From Candidatus Poribacteria bacterium (GTDB lineage: Bacteria; Poribacteria; WGA-4E; WGA-3G), in the NCBI GenBank assembly GCA_965214095.1, contig OZ243938.1, positions 2,144,001 to 2,208,000 of the forward strand: a DNA stretch of 64,000 nt, written 5' to 3'. The position numbers and the translations under genes are program-made. Positions within the stretch are counted from its first letter, which is position 1. Each line of letters starts with the position of its first letter. The notes below the pieces were generated by a model, which saw nothing but the letters and a program-made list of their open reading frames with translations, had not been told where the DNA came from and did not search any database. Below, in pieces: positions 2,252-26,738 of the stretch.

Positions 2252-5200
2252 ATGAAAACACTAACTCTAAATAATAACCATGTTCTCTACGTATTGATTT
2301 CCATTTTTTTATTCGCATTAAATGTAACGAGTTATGCAGACATTACACCAGTAAGTGACCGAACAACAGAAGTGCAAGATGCTATACTTTTTGCAGTAGG
2401 TGTGAATTCTGCCGCAGATGTCACCGAAACCGACCTTGCAGCTATTACAGAACTAAACCTACGGTCAAAAGGTATTACAGAACTAAAATCGGGTGATTTT
2501 TCTGGAATGTCCGGACTCACTAATCTGAACCTATATGGTAACGAACTTAGCAGTTTGCCGAATAACATCTTTGATGGACTCTCTGCCCTCACAACCCTGC
2601 GATTGGGTGGAAACACCGTTGATCCAATGCCAATTATCATATCATTGGAAAAAGTTGGCGAAAATCAATTCAAAGCAGTCGCACCCACTGGTGCGCCTTT
2701 TAATATAAGTGTTCCCATAAGTACTGCCAATGGTAGCATTAGTGGGAATACGACATCTCTGACCATTTCCACAGGAACAGTAGCAAGTAGTACAGTCACA
2801 GTGACTCGGACAGAGGGAACAACTGCTGCAGTAACAGCTGATATCGGCACGTTACCCAGTATACCAAGTCTCAACCATTACGGTTATGAATTATCAAAAT
2901 CTGACTCGTTACCTATTCAACTTTTCAGTATATCAGACACAGAAGAAGAAACAGACATGGGTGAACTGGATGATAATGCTGCGCCTGTGTTTAATGAAGG
3001 TACGAGCACGACACGGACGGTTGCAGAGAATACTAAATCCGGTCAAAACATTGGGAGTGCTGTTACTGCGACAGATGACGATGGTGATACGTTGATCTAT
3101 ACTCTCGGTGGCACTGATGCAGCGTCCTTTGATATTGTCAGTACATCTGGGCAGCTACAGACAAAAGCAGCGTTGGATTATGAAACGAAGTCGTCCTATT
3201 CTGTCACTGTTACTGTTCAGGATCCGGACGATAGCTCAGTTCATATTAACGTCACAATCAACGTGACCGATGTCAATGATGCGCCGGTTTTTTCATCGGA
3301 TAGCATTACGCTTACCGTAGCAGAAAATACAGCAGCTGGCACTAATATCGGGAGTGCTGTTTCTGCGACAGATCCAGATGGCGATACGTTGACATATACT
3401 CTTGGCGGTACGGATGCAGCGTCCTATGATATTGTGAGCACATCTGGGCAGCTACAAACAAAAGCAGCATTGGACTATGAAACGAAGAAAACTTACGCGG
3501 TGTCAATCACCGCTAAAGATGATGAAGATGCTTCTAAGACGATCAATGTTATGATCAATGTGACAAATGTGTCGGAACCCGGCGACAATGATGCACCTGT
3601 ATTTGCTGACGGCACAAGCACAACACGAAGTGTCGCAGAAAATACAGTCGCAAGTGTTAATATCGGGAGTGCTGTTTCCGCTACAGATGACGATAGTGAT
3701 ACGTTGACATATAGCCTTGGTGGAACCGATGCAGCGTCCTTTGATATAGTGACCACTTCCGGACAGTTGCAGACAAAAACAACGTTGGATTATGAAACGA
3801 AGTCGTCCTATTCTGTCACTATTACAGCACAGGATCCGGGGGATCTTTCAGCTACTATTAGTGTTACAATCAATGTGACCGATGTGAATGAAGCACCGGT
3901 TTTTTCATCGGATAGCATTACGTTAACCGTAGCAGAAAATACAGGCGCAAGTGTCAATATCGGGAGTGCTGTTTCTGCGACAGATCCAGATGGGGATACG
4001 TTATCCTACAGTCTCAGTGGAACAGATGCAACATCCTTTGATATTGTCAACACATCGGGGCAATTACAGACAAAAACAGCGTTAGACTATGAAACGAAGA
4101 CGTCCTATTCTGTCACTATTACAGCAAAGGATCCGGATGATCTCTCAGATACCATTAGTGTTACAATCAATGTGACCGATGTGAATGAAGCACCGGTTTT
4201 TTCATCGGATAGCATTACGTTAACCGTAGCAGAAAATACAGCAGCTGGTACTAATATCGGGAGTGCTGTTTCTGCGACAGATCCAGATGGGGATACGTTG
4301 ACATATACTCTTGGCGGTACGGATGCAGCGTCCTTTGATATTGTGAGTTCATCTGGGCAGCTACAGACAAAAACCAGTTTGGATTATCAAACGAAGACAA
4401 CTTACTCGGTTACGGTAACTGCCGAAGATGGTGACGATGCTTCAGATACCATCAATGTTACTATCAATGTAACAAATGTGTTGGAGACTGTTGAGAATAT
4501 AGCACCCATATTCACTGAAGGCACAGACACAACACGGAGTATTGCAGAGAATACGACATCAGGACAAAACATTGGAAGTACTGTTTCTGCGACAGATGAG
4601 AATGGTGATACGTTGACCTATTCTCTGGGTGGCACTGATGCAGCGTCGTTCGATATTGTGAGCACAACTGGACAGCTACAGACAAAAACCAGTTTGGATT
4701 ATGAAAGTAAGAACATCTATTCTATAACGATTACTGCATCAGATGGAACACTTACAGATACCATCAATGTAACAGTCGGTATCACAAACGTACACGAGGC
4801 AGGTATCAACAATTATCCTGAGTTCAACGATGGTATTATTACCACAAGATCTGTTAGAGAGAACACCGATGCTGAGAATTCTATTGGTACACCGCTTACT
4901 GCCACGGACAGTGATGGTGATACCTTGGAATATTCCATGACTGGAACAGAATCCTCTTCATTTAGTATTGACAGCACAACAGGACAGCTCAGCACTAATA
5001 GTGCGTTAGATTTTGAAATGCAGCATACTTATTCTTTTACTGTCACCGTAACAGATTCGCAGGGTGGCAGTGTAAGCATTGCTGTTATGATCAACATCAT
5101 TGATGTATTGGAGTCAACGCCTCTCAGTGAACGCACAGGAGTCGTAAGAAGTGCCATCATTGATGCTATTGATGGGGTATCAACTGCATCCGAAGTTAAT

Positions 5201-8200
5201 GATGGACACCTTGCTGCAATTACAACACTCAGAATTGCTGCAACATCTATAACCACATTAAAAAACGGTGATTTCGATGGGCTCTCTTCATTGACATACC
5301 TTGGATTACAGTTCAACAGATCATTCAAAAGCATACCTGAGGATATTTTTGAAGGATTGACACTCCTAAAGACTTTAAAACTCTCGACCAACAACACGTT
5401 GGAAAGTGTACCAACTGATCTCTTTGATGGATTGTCCTCACTTGAGGAGCTTGATCTGCTTGCGAATAAACTTACGGTGTTACCCGTTGAATTATTTGAA
5501 GGTTTGTCATCGTTGAAACGGCTTGATTTGTCACGAAACGAAATAAGCAGTCTACCTGAAGGCATTTTTGATGGGTTGACAAAGCTCGTCTACCTCTCAT
5601 TGCATAAGAATAGACTGACAAGTCTACCAGCAGATATTTTTGACGGCTTATCAATGCTTCATTCGCTCATAATGGATGGTAATCGGTTGACGAGTTTACC
5701 TGTTGGTGTGTTTGAGGGGTTGACATCACTGGTTGTTCTTGAGGCACATCAAGGCACCTCACTTCCTATCACGGTATCGTTAGAGAAGGTTCAAGATGGA
5801 GAGTTCAAAGCCAATGTTGATACTGGGGCACCGTTTGATCTTGTATTGCCTCTCAGTGTGACCAATGGTAGTATTGACGGAGACACTACTACGATTACGA
5901 TCAAGACAGGTAAAATTGAAAGCGACACTACGCTCACTGTAACCCGAGAGACAGGAACGACTGGATCGGTCAATGTGGATATCGGTACATTACCTACACC
6001 TCCAGAAGATGAACATGATGGTTACATTTTAGGCACATCTAACCTACTACCTTTGAGTGTTATCCCAGCAACTGGTGAAGCGAGTAACACTGCCCCCACT
6101 TTTACAGATGGTGCAAGTACCACCCGTTCAGTAGCAGAGAATACTGCATCTGGTCAAAATATAGGGAGTGTTGTTGCGGCAACAGATGATGAAGGTGACA
6201 CATTAACTTACACACTCAGCGGGACAGATGCATCCTCCTTTACACTTGATAGTTCATCAGGACAGATTAAGACAAGTGGTACGTTGGATTATGAAACCAA
6301 GACGTCTTATTCTGTGATTGTTACAGCCACGGATCCGGATGGTCTCTCAGATACAATCAATGTCACTATTAACATCACAGATGTGAATGAGGTCGTCAAT
6401 AATGCACCTGTGATCACAGAAGGCACAAGTGGGACACGCACCGTTGCCGAAAACACTGCAGCAGGGCAAAATATCGGGGATCCTGTCTCAGCAACCGATG
6501 AAGATGGGGATACATTGACTTATAGTTTGAGTGGTACTGATGCAGCGTCATTTGACATTGACACAACAAATGGGCAGCTGAAAACGAAAGCCGCTTTGGA
6601 CTATGAAACGAAGGCTTCATATTCTGTGACGGTGACAGTTAAGGATGATGACAACGCCTCCGATTCTATCAGTGTGACGATCAACATCACTGATGTGGAA
6701 GAGACTACACCCAATAATGCACCTGTATTCAGTGATGGCGCAAGCACTACAAGAAGTATCGCAGAAAATACGGCAGCCAATATGAATATAGGTAGTGCCG
6801 TCTCCGCAACGGATGACGATGGTGATACGTTGACTTATAGTTTGAGTGGTACTGATTCAGCATCATTTGACATTGACACAACAAATGGGCAGCTGAAAAC
6901 GAAAGCCGCTTTGGACTATGAAACGAAGGCTTCATACGCTGTGACGATAACTGTGAAAGATGGTGACGAGGCATCAGATACAATCAATGTCACTATCAAC
7001 ATCACAGACGTGGAAGAAGTTGCACCCGCGAATGCACCCGTATTCACTGAAGGCGAAAGCGCGACACGTACCGTAGCTGAAAATACGGCTGCAGCACAGA
7101 ACATCGGAGATGCTGTCTCCGCTACTGATGCAGATGCGGATACATTGACTTATGCTCTCAGTGGAACAGATGCCGCATCGTTTGACATTGACACAACAAA
7201 TGGACAGATTAAGACAAAAGCAGCTCTAAACTATGAAACAAAGAGCAGCTATTCTGTGGTCGTAACTGCATCGGATGAAACGCTATCAGATACCATTAAC
7301 ATTACCATAAATGTGACTGATGTCAACGATGCACCCGTCTTTGCAGATGATTCTAAAACCCTGACTATAGCCGAGAATACTGATGCTGATACAGACATCG
7401 GAGATCCTGTTTCAGCAACAGATGAAGATGAAGATACCTTGACCTATACGCTCGGTGGAACAGATGCAGCATCTTTTGATATTGACAGCACTGATGGACA
7501 GCTAAAGACAAAAGCAAGTTTGGACTATGAAACGAAGGCTTCATACGCTGTGACGATAACTGTGAAAGATGGTGACGAGGCATCAGATACAATCAATGTC
7601 ACTATCAACATCACAGATGTGGATGAGGTGGTTCCCGGAAATGCACCAGTATTCTCTGAAGGCGCAAGCGCAACACGAACCATTGCAGAAAATACTGCTG
7701 CAGCGCAGAACATCGGAAATGCTGTTTCCGCTACTGATGCAGATGAGGATACATTGACTTATGCTCTCAGTGGAACAGATGCAGCATCATTTGACATTGA
7801 CACAACAAATGGACAGATTAAGACAAAAGCAGCTCTAAACTATGAAACAAAGAGCAGCTATGCTGTAGTTGTCACTGCATCCGATGAAACGCTATCAGAT
7901 ACCATTAACATTACCATAAATGTGAGTGATGTGAATGATGCACCAGTCTTTGCAAATGATTCCACAACTCGGTCTATAGACGAGAATACTGCTGCAGATA
8001 CAAACATTGGAGATCCTGTTTCAGCCACAGATGAAGATGGTGATACGTTGACCTATAGTCTTAGTGGAACGGATGCGGCTGATTTCAATCTTGATGATAG
8101 TTCAGGACAGCTAAGTACTAAGAAGGTTCTGGATTATGAGACAAAAACATCATACTCCGTGACAATTACTGCTACTGATGCAGACAACGCGACTGACAGT

Positions 8201-17055: not shown

Positions 17056-18354
17056 CTAAAAATGCTGAGCAACGAGGACCAGGTCTAAAATATTAACCTC
17101 ACCATCCCCATTGACATCCCCAACGAGACCTTCACCACTCTCACCGAAATCCTGAGCGACAAGTACGAGATCCTTTATGTCAACAAAACCATCATCGTTC
17201 ACATCTTCATCCCGAGGAACAACTTGAGCAAGTGCCACTTTATCTGTTCCGTGTCCAAGTTGATAGGTTTTGAGAAGTGTCTCATCCATCCCCATGACAA
17301 GGAGTGTAGACAGACCACCACCTGTCCAGTCAGGTTTAGCGATGTAGAGATTACCATCATCCCCAAAAGTCATTCCCGAACCACCAGCAAACTCTTCTAA
17401 TGTGTTATCTTTATCACGAATCCACTCTTGCGATGGCACATCATAAATTAGCAGACCAGGACTCATCCAACCGCCTTGAATAAACAACTGTTTCTCTGAG
17501 TTGATGACAAATGAACCCGGAGTCATTTTCAAATCAACCGTATTAGTAATTTCATCAGTTGTTGCATCAATAAAGACAAGGTTTCCAGTAATATCACTGT
17601 AATTACCTGTCGTCTTTACAATCACTGTGGAATCCCCATCGTTGAGAATACCACCTGCATTGATAGGCACCGAGATCGTCTTTATCACAGAGTCTGTCTG
17701 CGTATCTATGACAGAGACAGTACTCTGATGATAAACGCTTTTGTTTGCTACCGCATCCCACTCCCAAGCAGGATTGGTGACATACGCTTTGCCGTTCAGA
17801 ATCGTGATGCCTGTCGTTTTATTGAAAGACGCATCACTTATGATTTTCGTTACGCTTCGACTACCAATATTAACGACATGCACCTGATGCGTGTTATCAC
17901 AGGTTACATAAATCTTATTCGAGTTCACAAGTGCAAGCTGCTGTGGGTATGATCCTGTTTGAATCGATATGACACCGATAATCTCCCGCCGTTCAAGGTT
18001 GACCATTACTATGCTGTCATGTGTGATATCAGATAGCCAATCGAAATTGGGTATAAAAGCCAGATGTCCATGAATCAGAATGTCACTCGGAACACCGCCA
18101 ATACTAATGACTTCACTATCAACAGCACGATTGAGATTCGGTTCATCAAGATCAACAATGGAAAGGGAAGAAGTGATATTCCAGTCGTCCTTATCCAATG
18201 CATTTATAACTACTGCAAGATTTTCAACTTCTGATTGAGAAAAACCAGAACTGACAAGGAGGGTGAAAAACATCGTCCCAATAAGTAGTAACGATGTCAG
18301 TTTATGGTTGAAACGGCATGAAAGATGTCGCCTAAAGAAAAAATGTCTGTTCAT
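17056..18354 (-). CDS. YncE/YVTN-type beta-propeller with C-terminal dockerin-like domain; candidate surface B12-binding protein
   Basis: GGAGG RBS before ATG at 18354; KAYVTN and TVSVIDT blades; DVNDDGFVDIKDL / DVNGDGEVNILDL dockerin EF-hand pair; first gene after the B12 riboswitch. Confidence 0.8.
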   Translation of the reverse strand: MNRHFFFRRHLSCRFNHKLTSLLLIGTMFFTLLVSSGFSQSEVENLAVVINALDKDDWNITSSLSIVDLDEPNLNRAVDSEVISIGGVPSDILIHGHLAFIPNFDWLSDITHDSIVMVNLERREIIGVISIQTGSYPQQLALVNSNKIYVTCDNTHQVHVVNIGSRSVTKIISDASFNKTTGITILNGKAYVTNPAWEWDAVANKSVYHQSTVSVIDTQTDSVIKTISVPINAGGILNDGDSTVIVKTTGNYSDITGNLVFIDATTDEITNTVDLKMTPGSFVINSEKQLFIQGGWMSPGLLIYDVPSQEWIRDKDNTLEEFAGGSGMTFGDDGNLYIAKPDWTGGGLSTLLVMGMDETLLKTYQLGHGTDKVALAQVVPRDEDVNDDGFVDIKDLVLVAQDFGESGEGLVGDVNGDGEVNILDLVLVAQHF

Positions 18355-18370
18355 TAATACCTCCGTAATG

Positions 18371-18407
18371 AAACAAGAAACCCCTGCTCTCTCTGAGAAG
18401 ACAGGGG
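18371..18407 (-). terminator. Leader terminator/attenuator hairpin of the B12 operon
   Basis: Minus strand CCCCTG-TCTTCTCAGAGAGAG-CAGGGG followed by TTTCTTGTTT, just upstream of the RBS. Confidence 0.6.
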
Positions 18408-18549
18408 ACAAGGCGACACTTTTATGTGAAATTAATCCTATTTTCAAGGATAGATAAAATACCTTATATCAGTATTTTTATTTCATTTCGTCAGGATAAT
18501 GTCGTGCTTTGTTCCACCGCTTTCCCGCGAAAGCAGACGCGTGAAACAC

Positions 18550-18782
18550 AATCCAGGCAGGTCTCCTGACTTCCGATTCTTTTGCTATAGATGACAAGTT
18601 CAACTTGTGTTACAAAAGTCCGCTGTACCTTCCCATCAACCGTTGACAGTGGTCTTTTCCAGCGGAAATTCCCATTGAGGAATAAATCGTTTACAGTGGC
18701 GGGGCCGTGGCGGAATCTCACCGCGCTTCCCTATTCTCCGGGGTTTGTCGCAACTCTTGCGAACCGGCACCTGAACCGTTCA
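18550..18782 (-). promoter_or_regulatory. Cobalamin (B12) riboswitch
   Basis: Minus strand shows AGGTGC...AATAGGGAA-GCGCGGTG-AGATTCCGC-CACGGCCCCGCCACTGTAA...CCACTG...GGGAAGG...AAGTCAGGAGACCTGCC (B12 box). Confidence 0.95.
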
Positions 18783-18803
18783 AATATTCAAATGTATTTG
18801 AAA

Positions 18804-18969: not shown

Positions 18970-19140
18970 TGTTTGTCTCCTTGTATGTGGCTATTGGCAT
19001 TTTATTGTCGGTTATTCGTCGGCTGTATGCTGATGGCTGATTGTTAATATTATATCTGATGGGGATGCGGTATGGAGAAGGTGTTGGGATGTTAGAACAA
19101 TGGATTTCTAATGGGATTTCATGTGAGTTGTGCTTTTATT

Positions 19141-19214
19141 TTATCTGAACCAGGATTTTCAGGATTAGTAGATTTACAGGATTATGAGTTTGGCTCTGTC
19201 AAGTTGCTATTCAC
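19141..19214. repeat. Family C MITE copy interrupted by the IS605-type mini-element
   Basis: TCTGAACCAGGATTTTCAGGATT...GAGTTTGGCTCT..CAAGTT.CTATTCAC matches the copy at 23471-23546. Confidence 0.8.
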
Positions 19215-19278
19215 CAACGTTTCAGGCAGGAAGCCCACTTCTTTAGGTGTGGGAGGAATGCCCGTTCCTATATTTTGC

Positions 19279-19307
19279 TTGACAGAAAACGTCAAGTCTG
19301 TTATTAT
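19279..19307 (+). promoter_or_regulatory. Sigma70 promoter inside the mini-element left end
   Basis: TTGACA-17 nt-TATTAT. Confidence 0.8.
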
Positions 19308-19308
19308 A

Positions 19309-19549
19309 TGCCCAAGCAAGTCGGAAGTGTCTTGCATATCGGGGCACGTTGATTATATCCGTGTCCAAGTAACTCGAAGACGATAGTTCGCTCGAACAAC
19401 TTCCGAAGTCGGAAGTGTCTGAGGTTCTGTATCGTGGGTCGCTGGGACCCCTCGGTGGCATACAGGTAAAGTTACGAGCCAAGACCGAAGAACATCAAGC
19501 CTGGCAGAAGATTAACACAATCCCATGCCTTTAGGCTTGGGTACCTGAA
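19309..19549 (+). ncRNA. Candidate structured ncRNA (omegaRNA/HEARO-like or novel) carried by the mini-element
   Basis: Multiple stems (GCAAG/CTTGC, GGGCACG/CGTGTCC, GTAACT/AGTTAC, CTGTAT/ATACAG, GGGTC/GACCC); duplicated AAGTCGGAAGTGTCT; CAGGTA/TACCTG pairing with the RE; no credible ORF. Confidence 0.55.
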
Positions 19550-19566
19550 AGTTTATTCTATCCATG

Positions 19567-20070
19567 GTAGGCGAGGTTTCCTAACCTCGCAATTACCCAC
19601 CACCATCACACCGTAGCCGCGCAACGCATTACGCCTCTTACATTCTCCCCGACATCCGAGACATCCGTGAAAATCCGCGATTCAGACCCACGGTAGGCGA
19701 GGTTTCCTAACCTCGCTCTTCATAGCCTCAGTTTCCAACCACGACAATCCCGTAGGAACGAAATGTATATCAAAATACTACAATGAAATTCAAAATAATA
19801 TTGACCATATACTACAACTAGTAGTATTATATAAACATAATAAGACAATAAATAATAACAAATATTAATTAACAATAATGAAGTCATATTATACCATTCT
19901 AACAGATCATCTAACATTAAGAACAAACGCCTTCGTAGTCGCGCAATTCATTGTGTCTCACATTGTTGGAGTGGTTTCTAACCCCGAGGCAAAGTAGTAG
20001 GCACGCTCCGCGTGCCGTCCTCTTGTTGGAGCAGTTTCCAACCGTGACAGCCCCAGCGGGACGAAAGGTT
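19567..20070. repeat. Mixed REP cluster (families A x2, D x2, B, E and others)
   Basis: GTAGGCGAGGTTTCCTAACCTCGC at 19567 and 19693; GTAGTCGCGCAATTCATTG at 19935; GTAGTAGGCACGCTCCGCGTGCCGT at 19994. Confidence 0.8.
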
Positions 20071-23470: not shown

Positions 23471-23546
23471 TTGTCTGAACCAGGATTTTTAGATTTCCAA
23501 GATTACGAGTTTGGCTCTCCCAAGTTCCTATTCCCAGTTTGACGTT
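23471..23546. repeat. Truncated family C MITE (empty-site reference for the 19215 insertion)
   Basis: TTGTCTGAACCAGGATT...CAAGTTCCTATTCCCAGTTTGACG. Confidence 0.75.
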
Positions 23547-23595
23547 GCAATGGAAAGGGAACGGCTATAGTGTTGAGATTGAAGTAGGTGAGATA

Positions 23596-24756: not shown

Positions 24757-24915
24757 TTCAACTACCCAAGCCTAAAGGCCTTTGGATTGTTAAGAGGTTC
24801 AAACAGCGATAACTGAATGATTTTCTTCTCCATAGCCTTTGTTACTTCGTTCTTGTTTCTCGTTTCATAGAGGGTGGCACCCCACCGCTCTCCACGACGG
24901 GCAGTAGCTGCCCGA
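24737..24915 (-). ncRNA. TnpB omegaRNA (reRNA) scaffold plus flank-derived guide
   Basis: Hairpin GGGCA-GCTAC-TGCCC (24899-24913) whose loop can pair with GTAGT at the RE (pseudoknot); RE hairpin; predicted guide TGCATCCACAGACATAATCG. Confidence 0.65.
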
Positions 24916-26024
24916 AAAAGTCCGTTTATTGCAGCGTTGTGGTCTCGGTCAAGCGAGTGTCCACAATATCCGCAGTTGAATGTCCGCACCGATAGCGATA
25001 ACTTTTTCGGTGCTTTCTGTCCGCAGCAAGAGCAAGTTTGCGAGGTGTTCTTCGGATCAACTTGGTGGAAATGGAAACCGTCTCTTTCGGCTATGTTCCC
25101 ACACCACTCAAAGAAGTGTGCCCAAGACGCATCGCTGATACTCTTGCTGAGGTGTTTGTTCTGAACCATATTGGCAGTATTTAGATTTTCGGTTACCAAG
25201 ACATTATTTTTCTTATGATGGTAGAGTTTGTAAACGAGTTTACCAATAAAGTCTCTGCGTCTGTTTACAGTGCGCTCCTGATGTAAAGCGAGTTTGTGGT
25301 GTTGTTTCTTTCTACGGTGAGAACCTAACTTTTTACGAGAAAGGTCTTTAGCGTGCTTGCGGAGTAATCCCTCCGCTTTGCGATACCAACGCGGGTTGTC
25401 AACTTTTTCACCCTCAGATGTCGTCAAATAGTGGTTCGTGCCGACATCAACGGCAACAGCACGGGTCGGTTCCACTTTCGGCGTATCACCGATGTCGCAG
25501 GAGATATGTGCATACCACCCGGTTGCTTTTTTCACGATAGTAACCTCTTTCGGGTCACCTTGAATGGGACGGGACATCCGCATTTTGATTTCACCGAGTT
25601 TGGGCACAATCAGTCTATCTAAACGGTGCTTCGTTGGACGAATAGGATTTTGACGAATGCCTGCTTTGTTCTTACGTAGACTCCAGGTGAGAGAACGGAT
25701 ACGTTTGCGATAGCGTGGGAATCCCGGTTTTTCACCACCTTGTTTGACACGACGGAAAAAGTTCGCAAAAGCTTTGTTCACACGTTGAAGTGCGTGTTTC
25801 TGAAACTCTTGCGGCACAATGTCGAAGTCTTCATACTTTGCACGTGCTTGTGTCAGAAGTCGACACTGTTCAGCATAACTTACAGAACGTTTCTCTTCTT
25901 CATACGCACGCATACGATTCAGTCGCGCTGAGTTGTGTAACTCACACAAATGCGAAAGATATTGATATAACTCGGTTTCTTGCGTAGGTGTCGGATACAA
26001 GCGGTATTTGAACGTTAAAACCAT
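24762..26024 (-). CDS. tnpB: RNA-guided endonuclease TnpB
   Basis: FKYRLYPT N-terminus, GFPRYR, RuvC-I AVDVG, RuvC-II VTENL, Zn finger CSCCG/CGYCG, RuvC-III DRDHNAA. Confidence 0.97.
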   Translation of the reverse strand: MVLTFKYRLYPTPTQETELYQYLSHLCELHNSARLNRMRAYEEEKRSVSYAEQCRLLTQARAKYEDFDIVPQEFQKHALQRVNKAFANFFRRVKQGGEKPGFPRYRKRIRSLTWSLRKNKAGIRQNPIRPTKHRLDRLIVPKLGEIKMRMSRPIQGDPKEVTIVKKATGWYAHISCDIGDTPKVEPTRAVAVDVGTNHYLTTSEGEKVDNPRWYRKAEGLLRKHAKDLSRKKLGSHRRKKQHHKLALHQERTVNRRRDFIGKLVYKLYHHKKNNVLVTENLNTANMVQNKHLSKSISDASWAHFFEWCGNIAERDGFHFHQVDPKNTSQTCSCCGQKAPKKLSLSVRTFNCGYCGHSLDRDHNAAINGLFRAATARRGERWGATLYETRNKNEVTKAMEKKIIQLSLFEPLNNPKAFRLG

Positions 26025-26440
26025 TATTTACCTCGCTGGTTCTCTACATACTTGCGAAGCACTTCTAAAGTGATACCCCCTATGGAGGCGATAAATTTAG
26101 AACGCGTCCAAAGCGAGGGAATACGAGATTTCAGAGAGGGATACTCATCACGCAACACACGAGAAGTCCAACCTTTGATCCTGCCAACGACAGATGCAGG
26201 AGCGAGTTGGGGACTGCTACTCATCAGAATATGAACATAGTCATCCATCACTTCACAGGCGTGCACTTCATACCCATAAACCTCTTGTTGTTCATAGATC
26301 AGTGTTTTGAGCCGTTCAGCAATAGGAGAGACAAGCACAGGACGACGATATTTTGTGCACCAAATCACATGGTAATCACAACTATAGACTAAAGAATGAG
26401 TTGATTTGTAGGTAGAGGGTTTTTCTTTAATTTCTAACAT
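26024..26440 (-). CDS. tnpA: IS200-type Y1 transposase TnpA (HUH motif altered to YVH)
   Basis: YHVIWCTKYRRPVL, IKGWTSR, LWTRSKF, KYVENQ; stop overlaps the tnpB start (TAATG). Confidence 0.95.
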   Translation of the reverse strand: MLEIKEKPSTYKSTHSLVYSCDYHVIWCTKYRRPVLVSPIAERLKTLIYEQQEVYGYEVHACEVMDDYVHILMSSSPQLAPASVVGRIKGWTSRVLRDEYPSLKSRIPSLWTRSKFIASIGGITLEVLRKYVENQRGK

Positions 26441-26473
26441 GTTATCTATTTATTTATTAGATATATGTTATAT

Positions 26474-26502
26474 ATAATAATATATATTTAGTTAATAGTC
26501 AA
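26474..26502 (-). promoter_or_regulatory. IS left-end sigma70 promoter
   Basis: TTGACT-17 nt-TATTAT upstream of tnpA. Confidence 0.65.
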
Positions 26503-26738
26503 ATATATTTGGGCTAAAGCAAAGAAAAGTCCTCATATCCCAAGTCTAAAGACTTGGGCTTCACGGACTATGAGAGGTGAAAGGGTTTGGGAATTGAAGA
26601 CAACTGAATCATAAGTGATTTTGGGTGGGAATTATGTGAATTTGTCTGAACCAAGATTTTCAGGATTGGTAGATTTTCAGGATTGGTGTTTTGGGCTTTA
26701 AAGTTTCTTTCAGAGTATCAGCGTATTCTTTTGAATGT

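Follow-up and report, generated by a model that had tools for sequence, protein, structure and literature searches.

A 64,000-nucleotide stretch of Candidatus Poribacteria DNA (contig OZ243938.1, positions 2,144,001 to 2,208,000; hereafter the window, numbered from its first letter) contains a protein-free mobile element of the IS200/IS605 type, which we named PATE-1 after the palindrome-associated transposable elements (PATEs). The element carries a conserved promoter and a plus-strand RNA of ∼235 nt, whose pseudoknotted fold is strongly supported by covariation. We propose that this RNA is a trans-acting, omegaRNA-like guide for a TnpB nuclease, borne on a PATE and enlarged by an additional conserved 5′ domain, for which no parent element was found. 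In our judgment, this proposal stands about an even chance of being correct, and the alternatives are weighed below where the evidence bears on them.

Copies, boundaries, and ends of PATE-1

The 335-bp block is present in five copies in the genome, with 98 to 100% identity. Alignment of the five copies together with their flanks placed the ends of the window copy at 19215 and 19549. TCAC precedes every copy (TTCAC in two and CTCAC in three), every copy terminates in CCTGAA, and the right flanks are mutually unrelated and differ from copy to copy. The window copy interrupts a dispersed repeat of ∼110 nt, and of the 17 repeat paralogs printed across the insertion point (...CTATTCCC|AGTTTGACG...), 16 are uninterrupted and one diverges there. 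Because the repeat continues across this point at the empty sites, the insertion of PATE-1 was precise and occurred without target duplication. An initial annotation, made from the letters of the window alone, had proposed a protein-free 335-bp IS200/IS605 element after TTCAC and had argued for the lack of target duplication from a single match within the window; the aligned copies and the paralogs of the repeat place both claims on firmer ground, and the search for further copies with matching junctions that it had suggested yielded the set of five. The repeat itself starts with GTCTGAACCAGGATTTTCAGGATT... and occupies 19140-19214 and 19550-19575 in the window, recurring at about 23480-23560. 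At least 17 copies occur in this genome, the genus has many, and the summed depth of the repeat in contigs from RNA libraries is high.

The ends of PATE-1 resemble those of an autonomous tnpA-tnpB element in the same window, which belongs to one of seven tnpB clades in the genome (clade A; Table 1). In both elements, GAAG lies just 5′ of the left-end (LE) hairpin, CAAT lies just 5′ of the right-end (RE) hairpin, TTCAC precedes the element, and TGAA ends it, a correspondence that had been pointed out initially and that reading of the sequence upholds. The imperfect hairpins of PATE-1 (19234-19253 and 19522-19541) are subterminal and resemble those of the resident autonomous element, and the last 33 nt are 85 to 91% identical to the REs of four tnpA-tnpB copies. 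The terminal base is A in this genome and in genome G019 and C in a second genus, for PATE-1 and clade A alike, which fits a shared dependence on one transposase. PATE-1 has inserted 3′ of a short motif and lacks terminal inverted repeats, as expected of IS200/IS605 elements, and the genome encodes the Y1 TnpA transposase. The clade A proteins match the Pfam families Y1_Tnp (1.8e-35), OrfB_IS605, and the Cas12f1-like TNB domain. The clade A TnpB aligns with structures of ISDra2 TnpB (E 3e-49), and in that alignment the RuvC residues D, E, and D are retained. This element has four copies, which hold all four full tnpA genes of the genome (one partial copy was also found), and it probably supplies TnpA and comes first among the nuclease candidates.

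PATE-1 contains no protein-coding gene. Neither of the two internal open reading frames (ORFs) matched a Pfam family, and substitutions across the PATE-1 family are divided 14/14/14 among the codon phases, without codon periodicity. BLAST, nhmmer, and the covariance model likewise revealed no resemblance of the cargo to tnpA or tnpB, in agreement with the initial annotation. Near-identical copies at five different sites point to a recent selfish spread of the element.

A conserved promoter and a covarying RNA

The internal promoter agrees with the consensus at 11 of 12 positions and is the sole promoter-like site in 19000-19800; its −35 box sits in a TTGACA...TGTCAA palindrome. The promoter had been noticed initially as near consensus. 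The count of such sites alone is not above chance (shuffled sequences gave a mean of 1.2), but the position and motifs of the promoter are kept among PATE-1 family members in three genera. Other IS200/IS605-type elements of the genome, one of them carrying tnpB only, have an LE and promoter 80 to 86% identical to those of PATE-1, and the same promoter precedes the tnpB gene in a clade D element. In the tnpB-only elements of clades D, E, and F (tnpB at 326077, 490494-491669(-), and 2247205-2248431(-) of G000:C1), a conserved leader of ∼100 nt extends from the promoter to the start codon and looks structured. No terminator-like site was found at or after the RE inside PATE-1. The transcript should therefore carry 3′ flank sequence, and each copy would make an RNA with its own 3′ guide.

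The fold of the RNA was evaluated on 21 distinct family members (alignment A1), whose core identity ranges from 0.59 to 0.99 (median 0.76). A covariance model (R1) scored the core of the window copy at 144.4 bits (E 9.5e-34). The tested fold comprises nine helices, including the pseudoknot. Across the 21 members, 95.3% of the paired cells can pair, compared with 31 to 40% in controls whose partners were slid by 1 to 3 columns, and 20/44 pairs have changed on both sides. None of 500 column shuffles reached the observed covariation score, a count that overstates significance because the sequences are related; the sturdier evidence is the slid controls and the swaps within individual helices (P5, P3, and P5b). 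In the third genus, a longer helix of other sequence appears, by reading, in place of P4, and in two lineages, this genus included, the transcription start is predicted at the first base of the core. Together with the absence of tnpB similarity, the covariation excludes a decayed tnpB fragment, the outcome that the initial annotation had named as fatal to its proposal. A fold under selection within a selfish element is an observation that we count for the guide reading. The conserved 5′ domain (P7, P3, P4, and P5) has, as far as the compared sequences tell, no counterpart in known TnpB guide RNAs.

It is very improbable, in our estimate, that the cargo has no RNA function and that the pairings act in single-stranded DNA during transposition, are a neutral remnant, or belong to a small antisense protein gene. 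In favor of this view, IS200/IS605 elements transpose as single-stranded DNA and use DNA hairpins at their ends, most family members have an open frame of 60 to 91 codons on the minus strand, and minimum free energy folding does not separate the strands, the fold of the minus strand being no worse than that of the plus strand (z −2.84 versus −2.07). However, TnpA requires only the end hairpins, while six internal helices covary, and the conserved promoter points in the plus direction. G-U cells outnumber A-C cells in the fold (34 versus 12), which fits an RNA of the plus strand and, with the covariation and the lack of codon periodicity, bears out the structured RNA initially proposed and places it on the plus strand. 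A small protein on the minus strand was rejected as a candidate: the codon phases are even, and the helix swaps change the peptide nonconservatively.

Two further features of the cargo had been singled out in the initial annotation. One is a 15-nt duplication (19318-19332 and 19406-19420), which had been read as a potential switch between alternative pairings. The copies are exact, but the upstream one is missing or replaced in 7/21 aligned family members, so the switch is not conserved; in the one informative variant (L023), the pairing is, by reading, better with the downstream copy. The other is a hairpin that seemed to fold better on the minus strand. In 13/21 members, the 3′ arm of the RE hairpin finds its best 6-nt partner 33 to 42 nt upstream of the loop, in a segment that changes in step with that arm. 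Within the RNA, this pairing would compete with formation of the hairpin. The ambiguity is explained by this pairing of the upstream segment with the RE 3′ arm.

Comparison of the RNA with Rfam, which had been suggested along with the covariance model, matched it to no family. At gathering score, the only match in the window is a cobalamin riboswitch located elsewhere; on the element region, a search with E up to 10 gave four chance-level matches, outside the cargo or on the flank; and Rfam 15 searched with four lineage variants of the PATE-1 RNA, E up to 0.1, gave none. The riboswitch (18539-18789 on the minus strand, 90.4 bits, E 4.5e-21) lies upstream of a 463-aa ORF with a dockerin domain (17056-18447). 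Just downstream of PATE-1, a short palindromic, REP-like unit, GGTAGGCGAGGTTTCCTAACCTCGC, occurs in two copies (19566-19590 and 19693-19717).

DNA and covariance-model searches found the PATE-1 RNA in 38/112 genomes of the family and in 46/151 genomes sampled from the phylum. The positive genomes fall into three genera (5/37, 28/57, and 12/20), with none in the other 19 genera sampled. A strict core pattern matched 22 loci in species genomes, all titled Candidatus Poribacteria, and had no match in viral contigs. One genome (G143) carries at least 50 copies of the RNA, and the ORFs that flank the RNA loci are unrelated to each other. In three species (genomes G119, G100, and G104), a single copy of the RNA element lies at the same site (loci L179, L180, and L181) and scores 44.8 to 64.3 bits, versus 116 to 164 bits for the other full-length matches in that genus. 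Six low-scoring matches, this trio among them, are also protein-free elements. The trio appears to be an old, vertically inherited copy whose core is decaying by eye.

These loci bear on whether the host has co-opted PATE-1 for use as a small RNA regulator or a movable promoter that drives or silences neighboring genes, which we consider improbable. A strong outward promoter without a terminator and an old copy retained at one site in three species count in favor of co-option. The retained copy, however, is low-scoring and decaying, near-identical copies at different sites speak for recent selfish spread, and the downstream genes are co-directional in 2/5 cases and convergent in 3/5, at distances of 142 to 452 nt. 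A regulatory orientation toward the neighbors was therefore rejected, none being consistent.

Contigs from RNA libraries of three studies carry related copies of the core, for example over 19369-19491 (19 differences) and 19368-19481 (18 differences), and one RNA run contains a very deep short contig with a summed word depth of about 4300 to 6900 over 19457-19498. The RNA runs with matches contained only 0.07 to 0.10 of the words sampled, and contigs were compared at 80% likeness; such contigs say nothing about ends, strand, or level, and stretches that they leave uncovered are uninformative. They are weak evidence because libraries of this kind can contain DNA, and they provide only a hint that the PATE-1 RNA is expressed.

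Table 1. Positions of PATE-1 and related features (window positions unless a contig is named).
Feature	Position	Strand	Basis or remark
Target/transposon-adjacent motif TTCAC	19210..19214	+	Directly 5′ of PATE-1
PATE-1, whole protein-free element	19215..19549	+	335 bp, IS200/IS605-type; copies and flank alignment
Left end, GAAG and subterminal hairpin CCCAC...GTGGG	19230..19253	+	Read from sequence
Internal promoter TTGACA-17-TATTAT, TG before −10	19279..19307	+	Consensus match and family conservation
Lineage-specific 5′ extension of RNA	19316..19366	+	Hairpins P1 and P2
P1	19316-19320 / 19331-19335	+	Replaced or absent in some members
P2	19342-19347 / 19361-19366	+	3/6 pairs changed on both sides; replaced or absent in some members
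Conserved RNA core	19367..19494	+	Covariance model R1, covariation
P7	19369-19374 / 19470-19475	+	Barely varies within alignment A1
P3	19385-19389 / 19394-19398	+	3/5 pairs changed on both sides
P4	19399-19404 / 19411-19416	+	Barely varies within alignment A1
P5	19427-19432 / 19460-19465	+	5/6 pairs changed on both sides
P5b	19436-19440 / 19446-19450	+	4/4 pairs changed on both sides
P6, pseudoknot stem	19452-19458 / 19479-19480 and 19484-19488	+	2/7 pairs changed on both sides
Variable linker, with CAAGCC (about 19496-19501) complementary to 3′ arm of RE hairpin	19495..19521	+	
Right end, hairpin 19522-19541 (loop TTTA) and terminal TACCTGAA, CAAT before	19522..19549	+	
Flank that a read-through transcript would carry as 3′ guide, AGTTTATTCTATCCATGGTA	19550..19569	+	Predicted from layout
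Co-resident autonomous IS200/IS605 element (clade A)	24757..26576	-	tnpA 26024-26440, tnpB 24762-26024
PATE-2 copies	G000:C1:781029-781434, 5082162-5082566, 959174-959579(-), 3279134-3279539(-)		Loci L008, L007, L011

The guide reading and the search for a nuclease-linked parent

Under the guide reading, the clade A TnpA would move PATE-1 in trans, as its matching ends and the biology of IS200/IS605 elements suggest. The internal promoter, homologous to the one that drives tnpB in related elements, would transcribe the folded scaffold, and transcription without a terminator would run through the RE into the flank to give a copy-specific 3′ guide. The RNA would be loaded by an ISDra2-like TnpB whose gene lies elsewhere in the genome. 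Once the element had excised, this TnpB would cut the empty site (TTCAC and the flank), and recombination would restore the element. The comparisons above establish the anatomy and mobility of PATE-1, its lack of a protein, its conserved promoter, and the fold and strand of its RNA; transcription into the flank, binding by TnpB, and homing are predicted. Two features of the RNA agree with such a layout: the RE loop lies at −20 to −17 from the end of the element, and the loop of P6 holds CAGGUA, complementary to positions −8 to −3 just before the guide. One copy of PATE-1 (c5, G000:C1:2067904-2068043) is convergent to a clade C tnpB element, with the right ends facing each other across a 45-nt spacer, and the two would draw their guides from one short stretch on opposite strands.

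A second protein-free element of the genome, PATE-2 (406 bp, four copies, 98.5 to 100% identity), offers a direct comparison. The two elements share the protein-free design and the LE and promoter module, which is 84% identical over 75 nt, whereas the middle of PATE-2, roughly 230 nt, is unrelated to the PATE-1 cargo. Over its last 90 to 107 nt, PATE-2 shares 77 to 83% identity with the 3′ flanks of tnpB genes from clades C and D (E 1e-15 to 2e-19), in contrast to PATE-1, which lacks such a parent. By these homologies, PATE-2 is a textbook PATE that carries an omegaRNA, and because it has a promoter and an omegaRNA without a nuclease, that design exists in this genome. The stand-alone guide RNA proposed in the initial annotation thus fits both the layout of PATE-1 and the precedent of PATE-2, but the searches turned up no nuclease gene that has a homologous scaffold.

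The genome has 22 matches to the TNB domain, in the seven tnpB clades. There are five copies of a larger TnpB-like ORF (478 to 563 aa, at G000:C1:2451771-2453366, 2759589-2761175(-), 3207780-3209375, 3362215-3363663, and 3413998-3415704) with an N-terminal extension of ∼170 aa. These ORFs have their own conserved flanks, a short upstream frame resembling a helix-turn-helix, and ends unlike those of the other clades.

Several results weigh against the guide reading, most of them from the search for a parent. No element in any genome examined proved to be a parent of the PATE-1 RNA, and the scaffold is not homologous to the RNA of a tnpB 3′ end. In this genome, nhmmer and the covariance model found only the five PATE-1 copies, and the unfiltered covariance model run on the window had no match at the 3′ end of the neighboring tnpB. 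When PATE-1 was compared by BLAST with sixteen tnpB 3′ regions, only its right end matched. A profile of the clade A 3′ region gave one weak match (E 0.3) among the 21 PATE-1 sequences, and the converse search, of the PATE-1 family profile against 29 clade A loci, recovered the right end only. The likeness of PATE-1 to the clade A 3′ region stops 33 to 72 nt from the RE, and the scaffold upstream is unmatched. The RNA was found at a tnpB 3′ end in 0/95 fetched loci, which are not all distinct places; only one of the 95 has any tnpB in its flank, 1.6 kb away and part of another element. Genome G143 has about 100 TNB-domain matches, but the 50 copies of the RNA compared with them have no such match within 2.4 kb. 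The pairing of CAGGTA (19463-19468) with TACCTG (19542-19547), to which the initial annotation had drawn attention, is likewise equivocal: both motifs are present and can pair in 92% of cells, but no pair has changed on both sides, one pair is broken in 8/21 members, the pairing overlaps the strongly covarying P5 by 3 nt, and in the third genus it is poor by eye. This pairing between the loop and the RE is possible. Finally, no described TnpB RNA needs a conserved 5′ domain like that of PATE-1; the ISDra2 RNA can dispense with its 5′ part, whereas the 5′ part is the best conserved in PATE-1 (ISDra2 as described in the part of PMC10097598 covered here).

Much of this evidence also serves a competing account, which we regard as possible but on balance unlikely: the cargo could be a structured RNA with another job for the element, such as a decoy for a nuclease or transposase, a regulator of transposition, or the partner of an unrecognized protein, riding on IS200/IS605 ends as the introns of IStrons do. 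None of the tnpB-linked RNAs searched contains an equivalent of the most conserved part (19367-19432 and P5 to P7), linkage to tnpB is absent in the 95 loci and the 50 G143 copies, and four lineage variants match nothing in Rfam. Moreover, the first base of the core pairs internally in P7, closing a discrete domain, and it is where transcription is predicted to start in two lineages. However, this account has neither partner nor target: an antisense target search with three conserved single-stranded motifs returned only PATE-1 copies and scattered matches with two mismatches. The read-through layout and an RE that co-evolves with the tnpB element are also what a guide RNA needs, though recognition by TnpA alone would require part of that co-evolution.

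The RE of PATE-1 follows that of the ISDra2-like tnpB element, which favors the guide reading. In G143, the last 55 nt of PATE-1 match a tnpB element at 94.5%, and an identical 22-mer is common to about 12 tnpB genes. Visual comparison of PATE-1 with the clade A 3′ region suggests a common succession of motifs, namely a GC hairpin with a GCUG-type loop, CUUCGU...ACGAAG/CUCGGU...ACCGA, ACGAG, UUAACA, and the RE; this likeness has no statistical support and is a lead only. The clade A 3′ end occurs in 4/6 RNA-positive versus 4/34 RNA-negative genomes of the genus and in 29/31 versus 28/34 of the second genus. This co-occurrence does not name the nuclease, because the genomes are kin and a shared dependence on TnpA gives the same pattern.

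A broader view, which we put forward tentatively and consider unlikely on present evidence, is that PATE-1 represents a new class of mobile RNA gene, in which a promoter and a pseudoknotted RNA of about 180 to 330 nt, free of a nuclease, have spread through the phylum on borrowed IS200/IS605 ends and in which the 5′ domain has a role beyond those of described omegaRNAs. That domain may capture a nuclease from unrelated elements, making PATE-1 a hyperparasite of TnpB systems that out-competes their own guide, or it may engage a partner other than TnpB.

If the RNA is indeed a TnpB guide, PATE-1 would be a natural case of guide and nuclease residing on separate mobile elements. Such a split would be a step toward the split architecture of CRISPR systems, with each copy adding one guide genome-wide, and it would provide a compact, promoter-equipped, trans-acting scaffold for an ISDra2-like nuclease, the family most used in compact genome editing. 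If it is not, the PATE-1 RNA is an unclassified, covarying pseudoknotted RNA with tens of copies per genome in sponge-associated bacteria, which would make a new entry for RNA databases and can be tested in E. coli. Either way, it is an RNA family new to Rfam that can be searched for by covariance model.

Comparison with known systems

A literature search returned no paper combining "Poribacteria" and "TnpB." An RNA motif goes by the name "Poribacteria-1," and the PATE-1 RNA may be identical with it. No paper was found under that name, which is absent from the main text of PMC5737381; an earlier naming of the PATE-1 RNA in motif supplements is possible.

Like PATE-1, the HEARO RNAs (RF02033), the omegaRNAs of IscB and IsrB, are mobile structured RNAs of IS200/IS605 elements. 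The HEARO covariance model gave no match on PATE-1 with E up to 10. HEARO copies without an adjacent ORF exist. In contrast to the PATE-1 RNA, which starts at an internal promoter, HEARO-type RNAs have a 5′ guide and, in this genome, lie on the strand opposite the LE. The genome contains five sub-threshold HEARO matches (20 to 29.5 bits versus a gathering score of 83), all in other elements. These five elements have a PATE-1-like LE, a 354- to 409-aa ORF on the opposite strand, and the HEARO match at the far end (near G000:C1 1931302-1932560, 172740-173998, 2599798-2601056, 4219751-4221009, and 4128120-4129394; loci L012, L017, L016, L015, and L010). The ORF tested matched the RRXRR domain (E 1e-34) without an HNH match, and the elements look like IsrB-type elements with a divergent omegaRNA.

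IStrons, in which IS200/IS605 or IS607 ends enclose a group I intron, resemble PATE-1 in combining IS605-type ends with a large structured RNA cargo, and a protein-free PATE version with IStron ends has been described (10.1101/2023.11.20.567912, in the part considered here). The PATE-1 cargo differs in that it is not a group I intron and has no Rfam match.

For the ISDra2 omegaRNA (reRNA), the portion of PMC10097598 noted above describes a terminal stem whose UUUA loop lies at −20 to −17 and a stem 1 whose loop pairs with the bases directly preceding the guide; the RNA is disordered in its 5′ part, and editing used a version without it. PATE-1 would share the arrangement of an RNA ending at the RE followed by a guide from the flank, and it has the UUUA loop at the same distance and, in the same order, a stem (P6) whose loop could pair with pre-guide bases. 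The two RNAs differ in having no sequence similarity and in that the ISDra2 RNA overlaps the 3′ end of tnpB, whereas PATE-1 has no tnpB.

Published PATEs are also close to PATE-1 in design, and here the initial annotation assumed more novelty than the literature allows. In the part of the 2023 preprint of Meers et al. (PMC10055086) that we considered, which concerns IS200/IS605 elements of Geobacillus stearothermophilus, PATE elements often encode omegaRNAs for use in trans by the TnpBs of other IS elements. These elements are, like PATE-1, protein free, have IS200/IS605 LEs and REs, and are presumed to be mobilized by TnpA and to supply RNA to TnpB in trans. What is new is the RNA family itself and how it departs from those PATEs as described there: its scaffold has no detectable tnpB-linked relative beyond the last 33 to 55 nt, it includes a large conserved 5′ domain, it comes with a conserved promoter of its own, and it occurs in three genera, at copy numbers that reach 50 or more per genome.

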